A stretch of DNA of 24,000 bases, taken from Terriglobales bacterium (GTDB lineage: Bacteria; Acidobacteriota; Terriglobia; Terriglobales; Acidobacteriaceae). Positions 1 through 18,198 of the stretch are shown in pieces; the stretch's first letter is position 1, and the number at the start of each line of letters is the position of its first letter. The stretch covers positions 1 through 24,000 of the forward strand of contig DATNNE010000047.1 of the NCBI GenBank assembly GCA_035601995.1. The letters run 5' to 3'. Under the pieces are notes generated by a model that worked only from the letters and a program-made list of their open reading frames with translations, was not told the origin of the DNA and did no database searches. The position numbers and the translations under genes are program-made.

Positions 1-690
1 TTCTGGCTGGTATTCGGCGGTTGCGGAAGCGCGGTTTTAGCGGCTGCATTTCCGAACCTGGGTATCGGCTTTGCAGGTGTTGCCTTAGCCTTTGGGCTGA
101 CCTTGCTCACCATGGCCTTCACCATCGGGCCTATTTCCGGATGCCACATCAATCCCGCAGTATCGATCGGGCTGGTGGCCGGAGGGCGCTTTCCAGTTTC
201 CGAGCTCCTGCCGTATGTTGTTGCCCAGGTTTTGGGAGCAGTTGTCGGGTCCGGGGTGTTATATGTCATTGCCAGCGGCAAAGAAGGATTCAGCCTGCCC
301 GGAGGATTTGCCTCGAATGGATACGGTGCCCACTCGCCCGGTGGGTACTCGTTGCTGGCGTGCTTCGTCGCAGAGGTTGTGTTGACGCTGTTCTTTCTGC
401 TAGTGATCTTTGGTTCGACGGACGATCGTGCTCCCAAGGGGTTCGCTCCCATCGCTATAGGGTTGTGCCTCACCCTGATCCACCTGATTTCCATTCCCGT
501 CACGAACACTTCCGTCAACCCGGCGCGGAGTACGGGGCCTGCGATTTTCGTGGGGGGATGGGCGGTGGGTCAGTTATGGCTGTTCTGGGTAGCGCCGATT
601 ATTGGGGCCGCCCTGGCCGGCTTAATTTACTCCCGGCTGTTTGCCGAGGGTCCGCAAAAGACAGTTCGAGCCGCCGAGAGGGCGCGCTGA
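1..690 (+). CDS. aqpZ: Aquaporin Z (MIP family water channel), 5' end cut by window edge
   Basis: Frame 1 is open from nt 1 ([55 protein letters not shown]...). Both NPA boxes are present (HINPAVS, SVNPARS). The sequence is nearly colinear with E. coli AqpZ as remembered (..[20 protein letters not shown]..). Stop TGA 688-690. Confidence 0.92.
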
Positions 691-712
691 CCGCGAATTC
701 ATTCGCGGTCAG
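687..712 (+). terminator. Perfect 12-bp inverted repeat overlapping the aqpZ stop codon (possible terminator or mRNA-stabilising hairpin)
   Basis: CTGACCGCGAAT-tc-ATTCGCGGTCAG. No U-tract follows (atcaacgg), so it is not a canonical intrinsic terminator. Confidence 0.4.
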
Positions 713-1073
713 ATCAACGGAGCAGGCAGGAACGGACCGTCCGCGCGCAAGGCACGGATAAATGGTTCCGTGCTGCAGCAGTAGCCTTTGGGTCTGGGAA
801 CCATCGAGTTTTCAGTTACAGCAGCGGTTTGGTTTGCACCTTGTCGATAGTTTACGAAATCAGGCGATAGCGCAAGTTTGCGCCGTCTGTTCGTCGCCAA
901 AGCGAAGTGGTGTGCTGCGGCGAGGGGGTTTTGAGCGTAATTAGAGACGTTATGCCAACTATGATCCTTCGCTGGTAGTGTCCGATTTAGTGCGTTGATT
1001 GGGTTTTTGGGCTGGACAGCGCCGGAGTTTTCCCGTCCGAGTCTTGGGTGTAGACTGTTGCTAGGAGACTGGC

Positions 1074-1238
1074 ATGGAAGCCGCTCGATTTGTAGCCGTG
1101 TTTGTGTCCATATTTGTGGCCATTTTTTGTGCGTTTATCAGTGCCTTTGATCTAAGCAGAGAACGAAGAAAAGCGGCGCGAGAAAAGCGTATCGCTGAGT
1201 ATAAGATGGCCGCAAGACTCCTGAGATTCAACATCTGA
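1074..1238 (+). CDS. Candidate small membrane protein, 54 aa (below the ORF-track cutoff)
   Basis: ATG 1074 is preceded by AGGAG (1063-1067) with a 6-nt spacer. Translation: MEAARFVAVFVSIFVAIFCAFISAFDLSRERRKAAREKRIAEYKMAARLLRFNI, i.e. one N-terminal TM helix plus a basic amphipathic tail. Stop TGA 1236-1238. No homology could be checked. Confidence 0.35.
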   Translation: MEAARFVAVFVSIFVAIFCAFISAFDLSRERRKAAREKRIAEYKMAARLLRFNI

Positions 1239-1364
1239 GCGTTCCTATTCGGTTGAATGCGATGACCCGGCTCCCCATGCGCCCATTCTGAGCGCCGACG
1301 CAAACCTCGATCAATACGACGTAAAGCGAGTCTGGTAGGGATGGGGAATCCAAAGTCAAGGTCC

Positions 1365-1458
1365 CCCACCCTAACGTCGAAATGCATGACGTAAGGGTGG
1401 GCCACCCTCACCCGTCCTGCTTCCTGACACCCACATCTCGAAAAACGCGAGATGTGGG
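1365..1458. repeat. Two adjacent GC-rich extragenic hairpins (REP-like)
   Basis: Hairpin 1: CCCACCCTAACGTC..GACGTAAGGGTGGG (1365-1401, one A-A mismatch). The arm AGGGTGG can alternatively pair with the following CCACCCT (1402-1408). Hairpin 2: CCCACATCTCG-aaaaacg-CGAGATGTGGG (1430-1458, perfect 11 bp). Confidence 0.5.
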
Positions 1459-1476
1459 GCACCCGCAAGATTCCTA

Positions 1477-1505
1477 TTGACTACCAATCTCTATATATGT
1501 AGAGT
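1477..1505 (+). promoter_or_regulatory. Putative sigma70-type promoter and palindromic operator of the PadR operon; would give a leaderless or near-leaderless mRNA
   Basis: TTGACT (1477-1482), a 17-nt spacer, then TAGAGT (1500-1505). The ATG at 1512 lies only 6 nt after the -10 and has no SD. Inverted repeat CTCTA-tatatg-TAGAG (1489-1504) overlaps the -10. Confidence 0.3.
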
Positions 1506-1511
1506 TAAGCC

Positions 1512-1823
1512 ATGAAATTGCGCAAGTCTCCTCAGACTTCGATCGTGCTGGCTGAATTTCTGCATGGGCCGCACGACTGGAAATACGGATACGACATCAG
1601 CCGCAATACGGGATTGAAGTCTGGAACGTTATATCCGATCCTCATGCGCTTGGCCGAACGCAAGCTGCTGGCTACGCGCTGGGAGACGCCAGAAGCTGGT
1701 AAGCCTCCCCGACACATGTACAAATTGACGGCCGATGGAGTCGCGTATGCGCGCGAGCATGCGCATTCGCCGGTGAAGCATCGTCTCTCGCGACCCGCAT
1801 TCAGTGGGGTGAAACACGGATGA
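1512..1823 (+). CDS. PadR-family winged-helix transcriptional regulator (103 aa)
   Basis: Signature YGYDISRNTGLKSGTLYPILMRLAERKLLATRWE...GKPPRHMYKLTADG matches the PadR wHTH pattern (GY.I......SGTLYP.L.RLE..G.L...W......R..Y.LT..G). Confidence 0.85.
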   Translation: MKLRKSPQTSIVLAEFLHGPHDWKYGYDISRNTGLKSGTLYPILMRLAERKLLATRWETPEAGKPPRHMYKLTADGVAYAREHAHSPVKHRLSRPAFSGVKHG

Positions 1824-2536
1824 CCATGATTCGAAAGAAGACGATTCGAAAGAAGACGATTCGAAAATTCGCCATGAAAGTATTGAACGCCGCGGCTCGC
1901 CACGCTGCGCCGGGAACGCGGGATTGGGTTAACGCCATGTCGCGGGAGATGGACTTCATCGAAAACGATTGGGCTGCATTGTGGTGGGCGCTGGGCAGCA
2001 CGCGGATTCTTTTCAAACGCCAATATGTTCCGCTGGCCGACTTGTCGGGGATTCCGAGGGCGGCGCAATGCCTTACCAAGACGGTTCGCCGGAGAACGAT
2101 CAGCGGCTTGGTCATCACCTTAACGGAGGCCGTCTTCTTCGGATATTTCTTCTTCGGGGTTTCGACAGCGATGCTGCGCATCGGGTCGGCGCTCACCGTT
2201 GCCGCCATGCTCTACATGGCTTACCAGCTCTACGCGCGGCGCGCGGCGCAGCCGCCGCTCGATACAGCTTCTGCAACCTTCGCCTATCGGGTGGAACTGG
2301 AGCGGCAACGCGAGTTCCACTGCGGCTCATGGTTCTGGTCGCGGTTCATCGCGTTTCTTCCCGGGCCTATTCTGTTTTGCGTGGGCGCGATTATTGCGCA
2401 ACCAGAGTCCGCCCGCGCCTACGCTACAATCCTGGCTGGGTTCGTCGTTCTTTCCATCTGGGCTGTGCAGCTCAATCTCAGCCAGGCGCGCAAGTACCAG
2501 CGCCGTCTCGACGAATTAGAGGCGCTGCAGAGGTAG
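1820..2536 (+). CDS. PadR-associated integral membrane protein (about 5 TM), function unknown
   Basis: Its ATG overlaps the PadR stop (ATGA 1820-1823). Hydrophobic segments: WAALWWALGSTRILF, ISGLVITLTEAVFFGYFFFGV, IGSALTVAAMLYMAYQLY, FWSRFIAFLPGPILFCVGAII, YATILAGFVVLSIWAVQL. Alternative in-frame ATGs at 1826 and 1874. Confidence 0.65.
   Translation: MTMIRKKTIRKKTIRKFAMKVLNAAARHAAPGTRDWVNAMSREMDFIENDWAALWWALGSTRILFKRQYVPLADLSGIPRAAQCLTKTVRRRTISGLVITLTEAVFFGYFFFGVSTAMLRIGSALTVAAMLYMAYQLYARRAAQPPLDTASATFAYRVELERQREFHCGSWFWSRFIAFLPGPILFCVGAIIAQPESARAYATILAGFVVLSIWAVQLNLSQARKYQRRLDELEALQR
1828..1866 (+). repeat. In-frame 15-bp tandem repeat, 2.6 copies (GATTCGAAAGAAGAC)
   Basis: gattcgaaagaagac gattcgaaagaagac gattcgaaa. 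It encodes IRKKT-IRKKT-IRK at the extreme N-terminus of the membrane protein. Confidence 0.9.
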
Positions 2537-2639
2537 GCAGATTGCTCGTTCACGGCTTTTGACTCCGCTGTTATGAGCGAACATCAAATACACTTCGTCC
2601 GGCCAGGAAGATCTTCTGCGGTTGCTTGGAGACTGCGAG

Positions 2640-2679
2640 TTGACGGGCGGTCCCGGATTAGCTAACATAGGTTAGCTAA
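2640..2679 (+). promoter_or_regulatory. Toxin-antitoxin promoter with twin palindromic operator
   Basis: TTGACG (2640-2645), a 17-nt spacer, then TAACAT (2663-2668). Two copies of the self-complementary octamer TTAGCTAA (2658-2665, 2672-2679) together form TTAGCTAAC-atag-GTTAGCTAA and straddle the -10. Confidence 0.5.
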
Positions 2680-2688
2680 ACGCGAGAC

Positions 2689-2919
2689 ATGGAAACAATC
2701 ACTATTCACAAGGCGAAGACTCAGCTGTCGCGGCTGATCAAAAAGGCTTGCCGGGGAGAGGAAATTGTCATCGCGCGGGGCTCGAAGCCGGTGGTTCGGT
2801 TGGTGGCGATCGAGGATGCGCGGGGCAATCGCAAGCCGGGCGCCTTGAAGGGAAAAATTCATGCTGGTCCTGAGTTCTTTGAGCCTTTGCCGCCCGATGA
2901 ACTGGAGCGGTGGGAGTAG
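2689..2919 (+). CDS. Type II antitoxin, Phd/YefM-like (76 aa)
   Basis: METITIHKAKTQLSRLIKKACRGEEIVIARGSKPVVRLVAIE.. is the typical Phd/YefM N-terminal pattern (..AK..LS.L......GE.V.I...GKPVA.LV). It lies 6 nt upstream of a PIN-domain gene. Confidence 0.85.
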   Translation: METITIHKAKTQLSRLIKKACRGEEIVIARGSKPVVRLVAIEDARGNRKPGALKGKIHAGPEFFEPLPPDELERWE

Positions 2920-2925
2920 AGCAGA

Positions 2926-3312
2926 ATGCGCCTTCTGCTCGACACTCACACCCTGTTGTGGTGGTTGGAAGAGAATCCCTCTTTGCCACGTTCCGCGCGC
3001 AAACTTATCGCAAGTAAAAGCAACGATGTCCTCATAAGCGCCGCTTCCGCCTGGGAAATTGCCACGAAAGTGCGCTTGGGAAAGCTTCCGATTGCCATCG
3101 ACCTGGCTCGCGATTTCGGCGCCTATCTTGAGCGGGAGCGATTCGAAACTCTTGCAGCCAGCGCCGAACACGGCATTCGGGCTGGATTGCTGCCGGGACC
3201 GCACAAGGATCCGTTCGACCGCATGTTGATTGCTCAAGCGCTCGCCGAGAATCTAGTGATTGTGAGCAACGATGTTGTGTTCGACGGGTACGGCGTCAAG
3301 CGGGCCTGGTAA
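2926..3312 (+). CDS. vapC: VapC-family PIN-domain ribonuclease toxin (128 aa)
   Basis: MRLLLDTHTLLWW.. gives the first acidic residue (LLDTH). Also present: SAASAWEIATK, DPFDRMLIAQA and VSNDVVF, the conserved PIN acidic quartet context. Confidence 0.9.
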   Translation: MRLLLDTHTLLWWLEENPSLPRSARKLIASKSNDVLISAASAWEIATKVRLGKLPIAIDLARDFGAYLERERFETLAASAEHGIRAGLLPGPHKDPFDRMLIAQALAENLVIVSNDVVFDGYGVKRAW

Positions 3313-3335
3313 GTGAGCGGCGAAAAGCATTAGTA

Positions 3336-3360
3336 GTCATCCTGAGCCACGCGAAGGATC
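3336..3360. repeat. Short hairpin repeat, family A (GTCATCC..GAAGGATC type), between convergent genes
   Basis: GTCATCCTGAGCCACGCGAAGGATC. Related copies in reverse orientation lie at 7452-7482 and 10881-10906. This one abuts the nuclease stop codon. Confidence 0.45.
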
Positions 3361-3893
3361 TATGCATTTTCCCGGCCCGCGCGGACCTCCGGCTTTTTCC
3401 CCCCACCCGACTTGCGATTCGACTTCATCAACCACCACGCCTCCCGATACTTCTCCCATTTCGCTCGTCCCCTCTGGCTGCCATTGGGATAGAAATACAG
3501 CGATCGCCGCCCTTTGATCGCCCCAATAGGAATCACGTACCACGCGTCCTCGGGAATCAGGTACACCACAATCAGGTCAATTTCGTCCTTGGTGTAAAGG
3601 TCGACATCGCGTCTTCTGCTGCCGTGGGCGTGTATCGCATAATGACGATGGCAAAGCCTCGAGGTCGACTTCACTTGCACCCGCCACACCCGCCTTCCGG
3701 AAGTGATAATGAAGTCGAAGCGTTCGGTTTCGCCATAGGGTTTCGAAACCCCCAGACCTAGGCCGGCCGCCTTGCACATAAACGCCAACTCGGCCAATTC
3801 TCCCTGACGTTTTTTGTAGAGGCATTCCGGCAGATTCCTGCTCGTGCGTCGTGGCGCGGATTGCAAGGGGCGACTTTCAGATTGTTTTTTCAT
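3360..3893 (-). CDS. PD-(D/E)XK-fold endonuclease, resembling the group-I-intron-associated PDDEXK_5 type (177 aa from ATG 3893)
   Basis: GELAELAFMCKAAGLGLGVSKPYGETERFDFIITSGRRVWRVQVKS fits the pattern G...E......L...G..V..P.G...r.D.I......l.RVQVK. The C-terminal part (DLIVVYLIPEDAWYVIPIGAI.GRRSLYFYP) is also typical. The track ORF extends to 4001 only via a TTG. ATG 3893 is preferred but has no clear SD. Confidence 0.65.
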   Translation of the reverse strand: MKKQSESRPLQSAPRRTSRNLPECLYKKRQGELAELAFMCKAAGLGLGVSKPYGETERFDFIITSGRRVWRVQVKSTSRLCHRHYAIHAHGSRRRDVDLYTKDEIDLIVVYLIPEDAWYVIPIGAIKGRRSLYFYPNGSQRGRAKWEKYREAWWLMKSNRKSGGGKKPEVRAGRENA

Positions 3894-3996
3894 GGTGCAA
3901 ATGAGGGCGTCAGCGGTTAGGCCGCGCCGGATCTTTGTCTCCTGGAGATTCAGATTGTGTTCGGGATTTCGGGCTGGACGTGTCCGCAGAATCGCG

Positions 3997-4033
3997 GACA
4001 AACAAAAAGGCGCGGGGTCTGAAACCCGCGCCT
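3997..4033 (-). terminator. Canonical rho-independent terminator oriented on the minus strand, with no annotated gene to terminate
   Basis: The minus strand reads AGGCGCGGG-tttcagac-CCCGCGCCT followed by TTTTTGTTTGT. On the plus strand no T-run follows the stem. Confidence 0.6.
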
Positions 4034-4180
4034 GAATACCTACTCTTCTAGAATAGCAGGTTGAATAAGGTAACTATGACATGGTTTTCAACTTTATTGT
4101 GGCCATGGAATGAGCAACTTGCGGGAAAAACGGGGGTCTGGGGGGCTTGACAAGATTTTGGCTTATCACCGATCCACCCA

Positions 4181-4264
4181 TTAAACCACGAAGGCTACGA
4201 AAGTACGCAGACGACGTAAATCCTCGCATTCCCTCCGTGTAACTCTGCGTCCTTTGTGGTTAAT
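4181..4264. repeat. Long nested hairpin, family B (CCACGAAGG...CCTTTGTGG type)
   Basis: Outer stem AACCACGAAGG (4184-4194) pairs with CCTTTGTGGTT (4251-4261), with one G-U. Inner stem ACGCAGA pairs with TCTGCGT. A related TCCTTTGTGG arm lies at 21035-21044. Confidence 0.5.
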
Positions 4265-4351
4265 GAATTAGGGCTCCGATACCTACCCCTCTCCGTTCGC
4301 TGGCCGATATTCCCCGATCACTGCTAATCCTATGCGGTTCTTGGGCTTACG

Positions 4352-4380
4352 TTGACCAAATTGGTTCTTTCGGGTAGCTT
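4352..4380 (+). promoter_or_regulatory. Putative promoter of the hopanoid supraoperon
   Basis: TTGACC (4352-4357), a 17-nt spacer, then TAGCTT (4375-4380), about 25-50 nt upstream of the ispH start candidates. Sequence match only. Confidence 0.3.
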
Positions 4381-4428
4381 AAATAGATAAACCATAGTGG
4401 GGAAGTGTACCCTTATAGGAACCCTATC

Positions 4429-5406
4429 GTGCCTACTAGCAATGGCAAGACGCTGCTTTTATTGAAGCCCCGGGGATTTTGTGCGGGGGTGGTGCGGGCG
4501 ATTGATATTGTCCGGATTGCCTTGGAGGCTTTTGGGCCGCCGATCTATGTCCGCAAGGAGATCGTGCACAACCGTTTTGTGGTCGAGGAACTGCAAGGCA
4601 AGGGCGCGATTTTCGTCGACAGCGTGGACGAGGTTCCTCCCGGCGAGCGGGTGATTTATAGCGCCCATGGAGTTTCGCCGGAGGTGCGGCAAGCCAGTCA
4701 GGCGCGCGATTTGCGGGTGATTGATGCGACCTGTCCGCTGGTCACGAAGGTTCACGTGGAGGCGGTCAAATTTGCCAAGGAAGGCTATTCGCTCATCCTG
4801 ATTGGGCATCACGACCACGACGAAGTGATTGGAACTTTGGGCGAGGCTCCGGTTGTGACGCAGGTGGTGGGTTCGCCGGAGCAGGTGAAGTCACTGACCG
4901 TGCCAAATCCCGACCGCGTGGCGTATCTCACCCAAACTACGCTGAGTCTTGACGAGACCAAGGACATTATTGCCGCACTGCGCGCGAGGTTCCCGAATAT
5001 CAAAGGGCCGGCGGCGCAGGACATTTGCTATGCGACGGAAAACCGGCAGGTCGCGGTGAAGCATGTGGCCTCGGATGCGGATCTGCTGTTGGTCGTGGGG
5101 TCGGATAACAGTTCGAATTCGAATCGACTGGTGGAAGTAGCGCGCAACCTGGGCACGAGTTCGCATCTAATAGACAGCTTCCAAAACATCAGGCCGGAGT
5201 GGCTGGAAGGCGTGAAGACCATTGCTTTGACGGCCGGAGCTTCGGCTCCGGAATGCCTGGTGGAAGAAGTGGTGAAGTTTTTGACCAGCAAGGGCTTCGG
5301 CAACGTGCAGGAAGTCGAAGTCATGCCCGAAAACGTGCGCTTTGGCTTGCCTCCCGAGATTGTGGAGGCGATTGCCAGCGCCCCCAGCGCGGTTAGTGCG
5401 GAGTAA
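4429..5406 (+). CDS. ispH: 4-hydroxy-3-methylbut-2-enyl diphosphate reductase (IspH/LytB)
   Basis: KPRGFCAGVVRAIDIV, VHNRFVVEEL, AHGVSPEV, DATCPLVTKVH and SSNSNRLVEVA are IspH hallmarks. GTG 4429 has AGGA 8 nt upstream. The track start GTG 4405 is possible, but its G-rich box is only 1 nt away. Confidence 0.9.
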   Translation: MPTSNGKTLLLLKPRGFCAGVVRAIDIVRIALEAFGPPIYVRKEIVHNRFVVEELQGKGAIFVDSVDEVPPGERVIYSAHGVSPEVRQASQARDLRVIDATCPLVTKVHVEAVKFAKEGYSLILIGHHDHDEVIGTLGEAPVVTQVVGSPEQVKSLTVPNPDRVAYLTQTTLSLDETKDIIAALRARFPNIKGPAAQDICYATENRQVAVKHVASDADLLLVVGSDNSSNSNRLVEVARNLGTSSHLIDSFQNIRPEWLEGVKTIALTAGASAPECLVEEVVKFLTSKGFGNVQEVEVMPENVRFGLPPEIVEAIASAPSAVSAE

Positions 5407-16461: not shown

Positions 16462-16510
16462 GCTTCAAGGCTGCTTCCCAGTTGCCGGCTGAACTTAGGC
16501 TTCACGTCTA

Positions 16511-16530
16511 ATGCACCTATTTCGGTGCAT
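16511..16530 (+). terminator. Possible terminator hairpin after hpnE
   Basis: ATGCACC-tatttc-GGTGCAT followed by aatttccctgaaaaaaaa. The stem is short and the U-tract weak. Confidence 0.3.
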
Positions 16531-16977
16531 AATTTCCCTGAAAAAAAACACTCGATTTCCCGCAAAATCTAGAAAACAAACGATCGGAATTTTTCTTGCC
16601 TTCTAGATCTATGGTTCTTAAGGTAGTTACAGGCACAATCTTGGAAACATTGGAGTTATCGTGGGCGATGGTTGGCTGCTACTCCATTTTGGAACAACAG
16701 CGAAGGACGGTTTTCGCCTTGAGCATGATTTGCGGCGCTGGCCCGTTCGTGGGTTCGATTGTCAAAGAACGTGATTATCTTGTAGATAATCTTTGCATAG
16801 CTATGTTATCGCTGATGAATGATGAAGGTCAATGAAAAAGAGGCGCGGCGCGAAGCCGGTTCCCAAATTGGGAGTGAGGAGCGCGAGGCGTCGGCGTACG
16901 GGTTAGACCCAAGTTAGCGCCGCATGAGCGGGGACGAACCTGGGGCACCGGGCCGGTTATCTCGTTGGCCAAATCCC

Positions 16978-18000
16978 TCAGCGTCGGGTCATTTCTGGCG
17001 GAACTCCCACCCTATCGCCGAAGACCTCCCGCGCTTGATCGTAGGCTCCAAGCGGCGCGATCACTCTCCCAATGAATTCTGAGATGTGCTTCCCCTGGAA
17101 TTCATCGATTACTTGAGCCTCGTCAATTCTGCGGAAGCTCCCCTTATCGTCCACAATTTCCCGCGACCAGAATCTGTGATCGAGACCCAGCAGAAACTCC
17201 TTTTCGACCGAAGTTGCCATTCGCGTGTTTGTCTTGCCCTCAACTGTTGCCCCTGGAATAATTCTCCACTCCCGCTGTCGATAGTAGGAAAGGAGCTTGT
17301 CGTTGAATTGATCGTCCGTCGGATAGAACAGGTTTTGAGCTGCGTAGATAGCGCCTCTCATCAGATCAAATGGGGCTGTCTTATAGTTTAGATAATCCAA
17401 TATGCCGCGGACGATGCTCGCCTTTACCTCGAAGCGTTGAACAATCGCCTTATCCTCATTGTTGTTCTGGAGATGCAGTACGTAATTTGGATCGACGTGA
17501 GTGGCCTCTGGGTTCGTCCTGCGAGCAAGCTCTAGGGCGGACCGCGGATCGGAAAGTTTGGACAACTGGTCCAGCAGATCCAACGTATGTCGAGCATTCT
17601 CGAACATCCACACGATGACCGGACCAACTGAGCTGAGTAGCCGATCGCCCTTCACCATTTGCGGCACGTATATGACGGGGAGTATTCCGAACTGCCGCAA
17701 CACCTGGATTGGGAACTCCAACGAGAACGGACCAAATGATTTCGCATGCCCAGACAATTCGGATTGCGAGAGCTCTGTGAAGCAGATTCTCGTCTGTCTA
17801 TTGCGGATTACCTTTGTCGTGCTGTCTACTTGGGGAATCCCCCATTCCACAACCTCTGGAGCGAGGACCATGCCGATATTCTTAACTCCCTTTAGAATTT
17901 CTAGCCCTTTTGTGATGACAAGCTCTGGCGTCTCCGACGGCAGCTTTCGCGGAAAGCTATGGTAGAAGCTTCGTTCAAATCCGTCGATCGCATTTTCCAT
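16978..18000 (-). CDS. AbiGi-like (abortive-infection family, Pfam PF10899-like) protein, 340 aa
   Basis: Pattern-level match to AbiGi as remembered: FYHSF.., LEILKGVKNIGMVL, RICFTELSQSELSGHAKSFGPFSLEF..GILPVIYVP (compare ..CFCDIPLS....H...YG.YGI.F......G.NPV.Y) and the later YYRQREWRIIPG (E.EWR motif). AAGGAG lies directly upstream of the ATG. The gene is visibly more A/T-rich than its neighbours. Confidence 0.55.
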   Translation of the reverse strand: MENAIDGFERSFYHSFPRKLPSETPELVITKGLEILKGVKNIGMVLAPEVVEWGIPQVDSTTKVIRNRQTRICFTELSQSELSGHAKSFGPFSLEFPIQVLRQFGILPVIYVPQMVKGDRLLSSVGPVIVWMFENARHTLDLLDQLSKLSDPRSALELARRTNPEATHVDPNYVLHLQNNNEDKAIVQRFEVKASIVRGILDYLNYKTAPFDLMRGAIYAAQNLFYPTDDQFNDKLLSYYRQREWRIIPGATVEGKTNTRMATSVEKEFLLGLDHRFWSREIVDDKGSFRRIDEAQVIDEFQGKHISEFIGRVIAPLGAYDQAREVFGDRVGVPPEMTRR

Positions 18001-18198
18001 CTCCTTAGCGCCCTGCCAGTCTCTCCCGTCTCAGTCAATGCTAACCCCAAAAAGCACAAAAATGCGACTCTCAAAGAAAGATGTCATTTGTGGTGGGCTC
18101 CCGTTATCTCGCTCCGGCCGAGTGGCGGGCAAACCCGAGAGATCTGCCTGGAATTAGTGCCATCGGGGTTCGGATAGGGTTTCGAAGGACGCGCCGAC

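Follow-up and report, generated by a model that had tools for sequence, protein, structure and literature searches.

The locus and its features

The DNA analysed here, called the window, is a stretch of 24,000 nucleotides (nt) from a Terriglobales bacterium of the Acidobacteriota (assembly GCA_035601995.1, contig DATNNE010000047.1, positions 1 to 24,000). Between two convergent hopanoid operons it carries an islet, 16462-18198, which lies between the stop codons of hpnE (16461) and of an EamA-type gene (18199). The islet has one solid gene, which encodes a 340-amino-acid (aa) protein distantly related to AbiGi, one of the two proteins of the lactococcal abortive-infection system AbiG. The islet is flanked by HpnE (TIGR03467, 500 bits), two EamA half-transporters and HpnJ (TIGR03471, 783 bits), and the hopanoid cluster upstream contains IspH, squalene-hopene cyclase, HpnH, HpnA, HpnG, HpnC and HpnD. 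The parts of the islet, including its open reading frames (ORFs), are as follows.

16462-16505: ancestral intergenic stub 3' of hpnE; homology to the loci L008, L015 and L012 (no cargo) crosses the hpnE stop and ends at about 16482-16503
16524-16873: conserved non-coding block outside the AbiGi-related cassette; matches L018 7453-7833
16596-16835, plus strand: 79-aa ORF with a TTG start, probably no gene
16832-16906, plus strand: 24-aa Arg-rich ORF, unsupported; overlaps the 79-aa ORF by ATGA
16978-18000, minus strand: 340-aa stand-alone AbiGi-related protein, the sole solid gene
18001-18129, minus strand: 5' flank travelling with the gene, putative promoter and leader
18130-18198: ancestral intergenic stub adjoining the EamA-type stop, with a weak alignment to the hpnE-EamA spacers (81-82 nt) found in L008 and L014

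The islet had been described as A/T-richer than its surroundings, and it is: its GC content is 0.516, against 0.566 across the whole window. The 1-kb segment with the least GC in all 24 kb starts at 16501, inside the islet, and its value of 0.500 lies about 3 standard deviations under the mean (0.565, standard deviation 0.021). Only 0.6% of islet-sized segments are equally low, each overlapping the islet, and the A/T runs that had been quoted are present at 16541-16551 and 16589-16596. The 340-aa gene has a GC content of 0.518, compared with 0.581 +/- 0.017 in the 16 other long ORFs. Since its GC at third codon positions is only mildly lower (0.603 versus 0.653 +/- 0.066), the compositional deviation of the gene is modest.

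A scan of the whole window revealed no tRNA, integrase or transposase, and the search for flanking repeats or target-site duplications gave none that was convincing, in agreement with the earlier report that integrase and direct repeats are lacking. Only short two-copy pairs in inconsistent order were found (for example 16988-17001 with 18083-18096, and 16953-16964 with 18100-18111), of a type that often arises by chance. The integrase or transposase, tRNA target and flanking direct repeats of an integrative genomic island are thus not seen in the window.

The 340-aa protein and its family

The gene at 16978-18000 on the minus strand is intact, and all the AbiGi-type motifs by which it had originally been recognised are present in its product: FYHSF, CFTELS, GHAKSFGPFSLEF, PVIYVP and REWRIIPG. 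Its match to PF10899 (AbiGi) just passes the gathering cut-off, at 25.4 bits against 22.4 (E 1.6e-5). The match is confined to residues 61-114 and covers profile positions 18-73, that is, 56 of 185. The AbiGi model of PADLOC is matched weakly (E 0.0051, 14.2 bits, positions 63-107 of 260), and NCBIfam and PHROGs yielded nothing significant for the protein. The label "AbiGi-like" therefore stands as to profile similarity above the cut-off, but the similarity is weak and partial, and the protein falls into a full-length family of its own.

A word-indexed search returned 232 homologues of this protein; an exhaustive search, with family clusters defined at 50% identity, returned 844 cluster representatives at E <= 1e-3 and 313 at E <= 1e-30. 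The proteins can be aligned from end to end, 54 sequences sharing 38 invariant columns, and nearly all members are single-domain proteins of 270-340 aa. Every aligned member (54/54) touches PF10899 weakly (E <= 1, best 2.4e-6). In compact members without residues ~150-200, the match spans profile positions 31-158, 31-170 or 31-182 and reaches the (Q/E)xEWR motif; because these relatives match most of the profile, the break of the match in the window protein is probably caused by an insertion. Judged from these alignments, the family is a genuine but divergent AbiGi-type core to which an insertion and a C-terminal extension have been added. The insertion is helical, with a beta-hairpin as well (~residues 120-235). 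The extension corresponds to the roughly 90 additional C-terminal residues that the original prediction had noticed, and it is conserved across the family.

Residues Y13, H14, E49, Q69, R71, C73, F74, T75, H85, Y111, Y240, E244 and W245 are invariant even in divergent members; R246 is invariant or nearly so, and R18 is nearly invariant across the family. The ratio of non-synonymous to synonymous substitution rates (dN/dS) is 0.096 and 0.095 in comparisons with homologues of 87% and 80% identity. The gene is clearly under purifying selection and, with dN/dS close to 0.10, its protein is clearly functional. Each source encountered that names a member gives it as "hypothetical protein", and full-text searches of the literature naming AbiGi found no description of such a family. 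It is best described as a large, uncharacterised, distant relative of lactococcal AbiGi that is solo, longer and chromosomal in environmental bacteria.

A resemblance to another domain was also observed. Telomerase_RBD of Pfam is weakly matched by 41/54 members (best E 7.9e-4), in the window protein at residues 224-245, where "LFYPTDD-x11-YYRQREW" resembles "FYATES-x11-FYRQEVW" of TERT. The motif is striking, although the resemblance is probably due to chance.

Acquisition of the gene at a variable junction

For the synteny comparison, relatives were collected by HpnE with one genome per species, giving 80 Terriglobales/Acidobacteriota loci of 68-89% HpnE identity. The check for absence of the islet gene from syntenic relatives found the 340-aa protein within 6 kb of hpnE in 0/80 loci. 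Its homologues of 70-88% identity are located in unrelated contexts. Horizontal acquisition, as had been proposed, is thus borne out.

The extent of the acquired unit can be read from related copies. The most similar DNA is that of L007, which shares 85% identity with the window from 16990 to 18129 but not beyond; for L178 the identity is 84%, across 16965-18079. The matching in both stops at the gene ends, so that the DNA common to the copies is the gene with ~80-130 nt upstream. A solid conclusion is that the gene was horizontally acquired as a gene-sized unit of ~1.1 kb (gene plus ~130 nt upstream, ~16990-18129). The 1.7-kb islet does not represent one single insertion: the islet exists, but it is composite, as the block at 16524-16873 is separate from this unit. 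Homology to cargo-free relatives ends on the left at ~16503 and restarts on the right at ~18150. The 5' flank (18001-18129) contains no conserved peptide frame and no consensus sigma-70 promoter was found in it; a promoter and terminator scan of the islet gave no signal above shuffled sequences. A small upstream peptide (ORF 18031-18132) was considered and rejected, its frame being different in L007.

An identical protein, with DNA 100% identical to the window, occupies this locus on six contigs, which come from at least 4 samples, indicating that the gene is fixed in this population. The most similar copy mentioned above (L007 8001-8998) is split into ORFs of 210 and 121 aa, and may be either a pseudogene or the product of an assembly indel.

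The convergent order hpnE / EamA / EamA / HpnJ is kept in 63/80 loci, with an hpnE-EamA gap that ranges from 15 to 3601 bp. The gap is below 100 bp in 16 loci, among them L008 (82 bp) and L014 (81 bp), which rank with the closest relatives that retain the arrangement. It exceeds 400 bp in 45 loci, where unrelated cargo fills it:

13 loci: PilZ proteins
8-9 loci: a two-gene cluster of uncharacterised proteins
L015, L018, L019: GNAT acetyltransferases
L045, L055: GGDEF proteins
L030 (7533-8142): a HigB/HigA pair
L042 (7529-8476): a DUF2971 protein, whose family is grouped with AbiGi in the literature

Because the gaps in relatives hold such varied and unrelated cargo, the 3'-3' junction of the convergent hopanoid operons is a cargo hotspot across Terriglobales, and the 340-aa gene is one lineage-specific occupant of it. 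A second accessory patch may lie elsewhere in the window, upstream of ispH (1-4001), where several ORFs without Pfam match accompany a PD-(D/E)XK endonuclease (PDDEXK_5, E 7.7e-18), especially at 3360-4001 on the minus strand; GC is somewhat lower around 3501-5000 (0.53-0.54).

These comparisons also bear on a role of the gene in hopanoid metabolism or regulation, for which its position between hpnE and the EamA/hpnJ operon would be the only argument. Such a role has next to no likelihood: the gene is missing there in 80/80 relatives with the same cluster, and homologues elsewhere never adjoin hopanoid genes. The hopanoid link was accordingly ruled out by the synteny comparison.

The non-coding block and the small open reading frames

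Both doubtful ORFs and most A/T runs fall within the block at 16524-16873, between hpnE and the acquired unit. Identity of the block to L018 is 71% overall and ~90% in its core (16524-16660), and no other relative matches. The gene that comes after the block in L018 encodes a GNAT protein and is not AbiGi-related. The core, ~140 nt long, contains an inverted repeat (16567-16579 with 16596-16608). No Rfam match was obtained for the block at gathering or E-value thresholds, no tandem repeats were seen, RNA folding gave no signal (z-scores -0.17 and -1.35), and the block was not found in other loci of the family.

The 79-aa ORF and the 24-aa ORF coupled to it by ATGA are mechanically present, as described originally, but as partners of the 340-aa protein they are not supported. 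Indels of 1, 1, 7, 19 and 1 nt break every frame of the block in L018, the sole homologous sequence found. Of the 79-aa ORF only residues 1-22 and 57-79 match there, in different frames, and the ATG of the 24-aa ORF is ACG, with homology stopping at 16873. With the frames broken, the ATG lost and the longer ORF matching only in pieces, the block is conserved non-coding DNA. The 79-aa ORF has no match in Pfam, NCBIfam, PHROG or PADLOC, and gene callers, applied to identical contigs, called 74-aa and 55-aa versions of it inconsistently. A tblastn search with the 24-aa ORF over 173 loci found no match. Both ORFs lie outside the DNA shared by gene copies, and neither was found near any other family copy.

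Solo occurrence and neighbourhood

None of the 23 ORFs of the window is an AbiGii or another PADLOC defence gene; the weak AbiGi match of the 340-aa protein is the only defence-system match, and the adjacent AbiGii of a two-gene AbiG operon is absent. Neighbouring ORFs (60 aa or longer, no more than 1.2 kb from the gene) were clustered for 87 family loci. The largest neighbour family, a serine recombinase 15 bp upstream of the family gene, occurs in 5/87 loci. As no neighbour is conserved across the 87 loci, the solo state is the rule for the family clade. The earlier statement that no AbiGii-like gene accompanies the protein is confirmed in this broader sense, and the description of the gene as solo was right. 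What has to be revised is the suggestion of an unconventional partner: the small ORFs are unsupported and, because the protein is a member of a distinct full-length family, the missing partner is a family-wide trait and no oddity of this locus.

The neighbourhoods of family genes are diverse. Mobile-element genes recur (transposases of insertion sequence (IS) groups IS66 and IS110, DDE_5 and DDE_Tnp_1_4 transposases, integrases and resolvases), as do toxin-antitoxin genes (RHH-PIN, MazF-like, HipA) and defence-type genes (Mrr, Eco57I, TIR with prokaryotic Argonaute (pAgo), reverse transcriptase, MADS components). The association of the family with defence genes is qualitative. A resolvase-type serine recombinase ends 15-44 bp upstream on the same strand in L132, L135, L150 and L162-L164, and may help to move the family gene. 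Two divergent members adjoin helicases: P0236 (L179 3136-5800) stands beside a divergently oriented NERD and AAA_30/UvrD-type helicase, and P0436 (L182 2137-6978) has a 1215-aa PIF1/UvrD-type helicase directly upstream on the same strand. Such members may be two-gene variants of the system. The P0040 cluster (90% identity) bears the labels Acidobacteriia, Methyloceanibacter and Acetobacteraceae, the last two being alphaproteobacterial groups, so that two phyla are represented, which suggests recent inter-phylum transfer or mis-binning of metagenome-assembled genomes.

Proposed function and its alternatives

AbiG is a phage-triggered abortive-infection system (PMC13064643) with no known mechanism, and neither of its proteins has a fold match (PMC13064643). 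The 340-aa protein may be a stand-alone, phage-triggered effector enzyme built on an AbiGi-type core; this proposal is tentative, with somewhat less than an even chance of being correct. The protein would work alone as an abortive-infection-type effector. Residues H14, E49, Q69, R71, T75, H85, Y111, Y240, E244 and W245, together with R18 and R246, would make up a site for catalysis or nucleotide binding on this core, and the insertion or the C-terminal domain would prevent activity of the enzyme until it senses a phage component. The gene is a reasonable candidate for a one-gene defence system, and the case for a defence or addiction role is circumstantial. The wider proposal, that the whole 270-340-aa family is an unrecognised one-gene anti-phage system which has an AbiGi-related core and a fold without solved counterpart and which dispenses with AbiGii, is bolder and must be called doubtful.

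A number of results weigh against the effector proposal. The best Foldseek E-values against the Protein Data Bank (PDB) were 0.6 and 1.5 for the two models described below, and the profile alignment of the family with DUF2971 gave a non-significant hhalign probability of 1.2%. The family matches none of the 5027 PADLOC models except, weakly, AbiGi, and no match was found in the phage, plasmid and IMG/VR collections. Many family loci have plain metabolic neighbours. Canonical AbiG is bicistronic and needs both genes (PMC13064643), and neither AbiGi nor AbiGii of lactococci was toxic in E. coli (PMC3985639). Database entries labelled "AbiG" are in many cases AbiE (PMC3985639). This frequent mislabelling and the lack of toxicity together undermine the "antitoxin" tag in the Pfam name.

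As to chemistry, bioinformatic surveys list AbiGi among families like ADP-ribosyltransferases (ARTs), near DUF2971 and DarT (PMC12522546). Following these published classifications, the reaction would be NAD-dependent ADP-ribosylation, with H14, Y111 and E244 as a putative H-Y-E triad. The AlphaFold2 model of the 340-aa protein has a predicted local distance difference test score (pLDDT) of 89.8, and that of a compact 273-aa relative 91.7. The three residues lie on predicted strands (E10-16, E110-112 and E244-246), with no anchoring alignment to any ART, and in the model they are compatible with such a triad. Foldseek gave no significant match, ARTs included, for the 340-aa model against PDB and BFVD or for the 273-aa model against PDB. 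Searches of PDB sequences with phmmer and with the profile gave chance matches only (NLRP6, E 1.2; TERT 4o26, E 1.7, top). In the DUF2971 comparison only the 14-column EREWR / QREWR motif aligns. Because neither Foldseek nor hhalign gave an ART or DUF2971 match, so that both fold similarity to solved ARTs and profile similarity to DUF2971 are missing, ADP-ribosyltransferase chemistry is a literature-based suggestion and an improbable one.

Alternatively, the protein may be an accessory enzyme without a role in phage defence, hitch-hiking through variable regions: an enzyme of nucleic-acid or nucleotide modification or of stress, or a passenger or anti-defence gene of mobile elements. Transposases and recombinases often adjoin family genes, the metabolic surroundings of many loci suit such a role, defence hidden Markov models match nothing past weak AbiGi, and PDB contains no matching fold. 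Yet no relative could be detected other than a family of phage resistance, the recurring neighbours include toxin-antitoxin, restriction, pAgo, reverse-transcriptase and helicase genes, and the family is missing from phages and plasmids, where passenger or anti-defence genes would be expected. This explanation is on the whole rather unlikely, though the most probable of the alternatives. That the protein is half of a two-part system, with its partner unlinked or lineage-variable, is clearly less probable. The bicistronic nature of canonical AbiG (PMC13064643) would fit, and the helicases preceding P0436 and beside P0236 could be such partners in divergent members, but no neighbour family occurs in more than 5/87 loci, the 24-kb window contains neither a helicase nor AbiGii, and the unit common to the copies is the gene alone.

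If the gene were part of a toxin-antitoxin or addiction module, the antidote, a small ORF or an RNA, would lie in 16506-16977. Two ATGA-coupled ORFs do lie opposite the 3' end of the gene, and the conserved block falls within this interval. A conserved adjacent antitoxin, as gene or RNA, was nevertheless not found: in L018 no frame stays intact, the start codon is lost and the block accompanies a GNAT gene; the block is outside the DNA common to L007 and L178 and at no other family locus; and tandem repeats, Rfam matches and a folding signal are all lacking. Such a module is very improbable. A stand-alone effector on an AbiGi-type core is still the preferred reading.

Implications

To our knowledge, AbiG is among the few classic lactococcal abortive-infection systems still without a mechanism or a structural analogue, the action of the AbiGi domain has been unknown since 1996, and phage defences of Acidobacteriota are almost unstudied. 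A large soil-borne sister family acting without AbiGii would, if true, offer a simpler handle on the biochemistry of the AbiGi domain; working out the family would then reveal the action of that domain, and a candidate single-gene defence system would be added for Acidobacteriota. If the protein is unrelated to defence, it is merely another mobile hypothetical protein. Independently of function, a hopanoid junction that collects cargo matters for reading gene content around Terriglobales hpn clusters. The account of acquisition is solid, whereas the functional account is a proposal; the gene is best seen as a credible candidate and is no surprise.

Comparison with known systems

AbiGi (PF10899 and the PADLOC AbiGi model) is the only detectable sequence relative of the family, the motifs RICFTELS...FGPFxLEF...PVIYVP corresponding to profile positions 18-73. 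The models of the family, like AbiGi (PMC13064643), are without a PDB fold match. In contrast to AbiGi, the window protein scores barely above the cut-off and is lengthened to ~340 aa by the insertion and the ~90-aa extension; at the 87 loci AbiGii never accompanies a family gene; and the family resides on chromosomes of soil Acidobacteriota and further environmental bacteria, not on the plasmids and phages searched.

DUF2971 (PF11185), which is predicted to be ART-like and said to resemble AbiGi and DarT (PMC12522546), shares the short EREWR / QREWR motif, and a DUF2971 gene occupies the same junction in L042. It differs in that the profile-profile probability is 1.2% and 0 family members match PF11185. 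With DarT of the DarTG system the likeness is hypothetical only, consisting in the possible H-Y-E triad H14, Y111 and E244 on predicted beta-strands, whereas the 340-aa gene has no adjoining macrodomain antitoxin and no Pfam DarT match, and Foldseek retrieved no DarT from PDB.

From the single-gene abortive-infection systems known from defence islands or variable hotspots the family, itself a candidate, differs in that it matches only AbiGi among 5027 PADLOC models. The family resembles them in several respects: it consists of a lone gene of patchy distribution, its variable junction here also holds HigBA and DUF2971 genes in relatives, and its members frequently lie close to IS elements and to toxin-antitoxin and defence genes.

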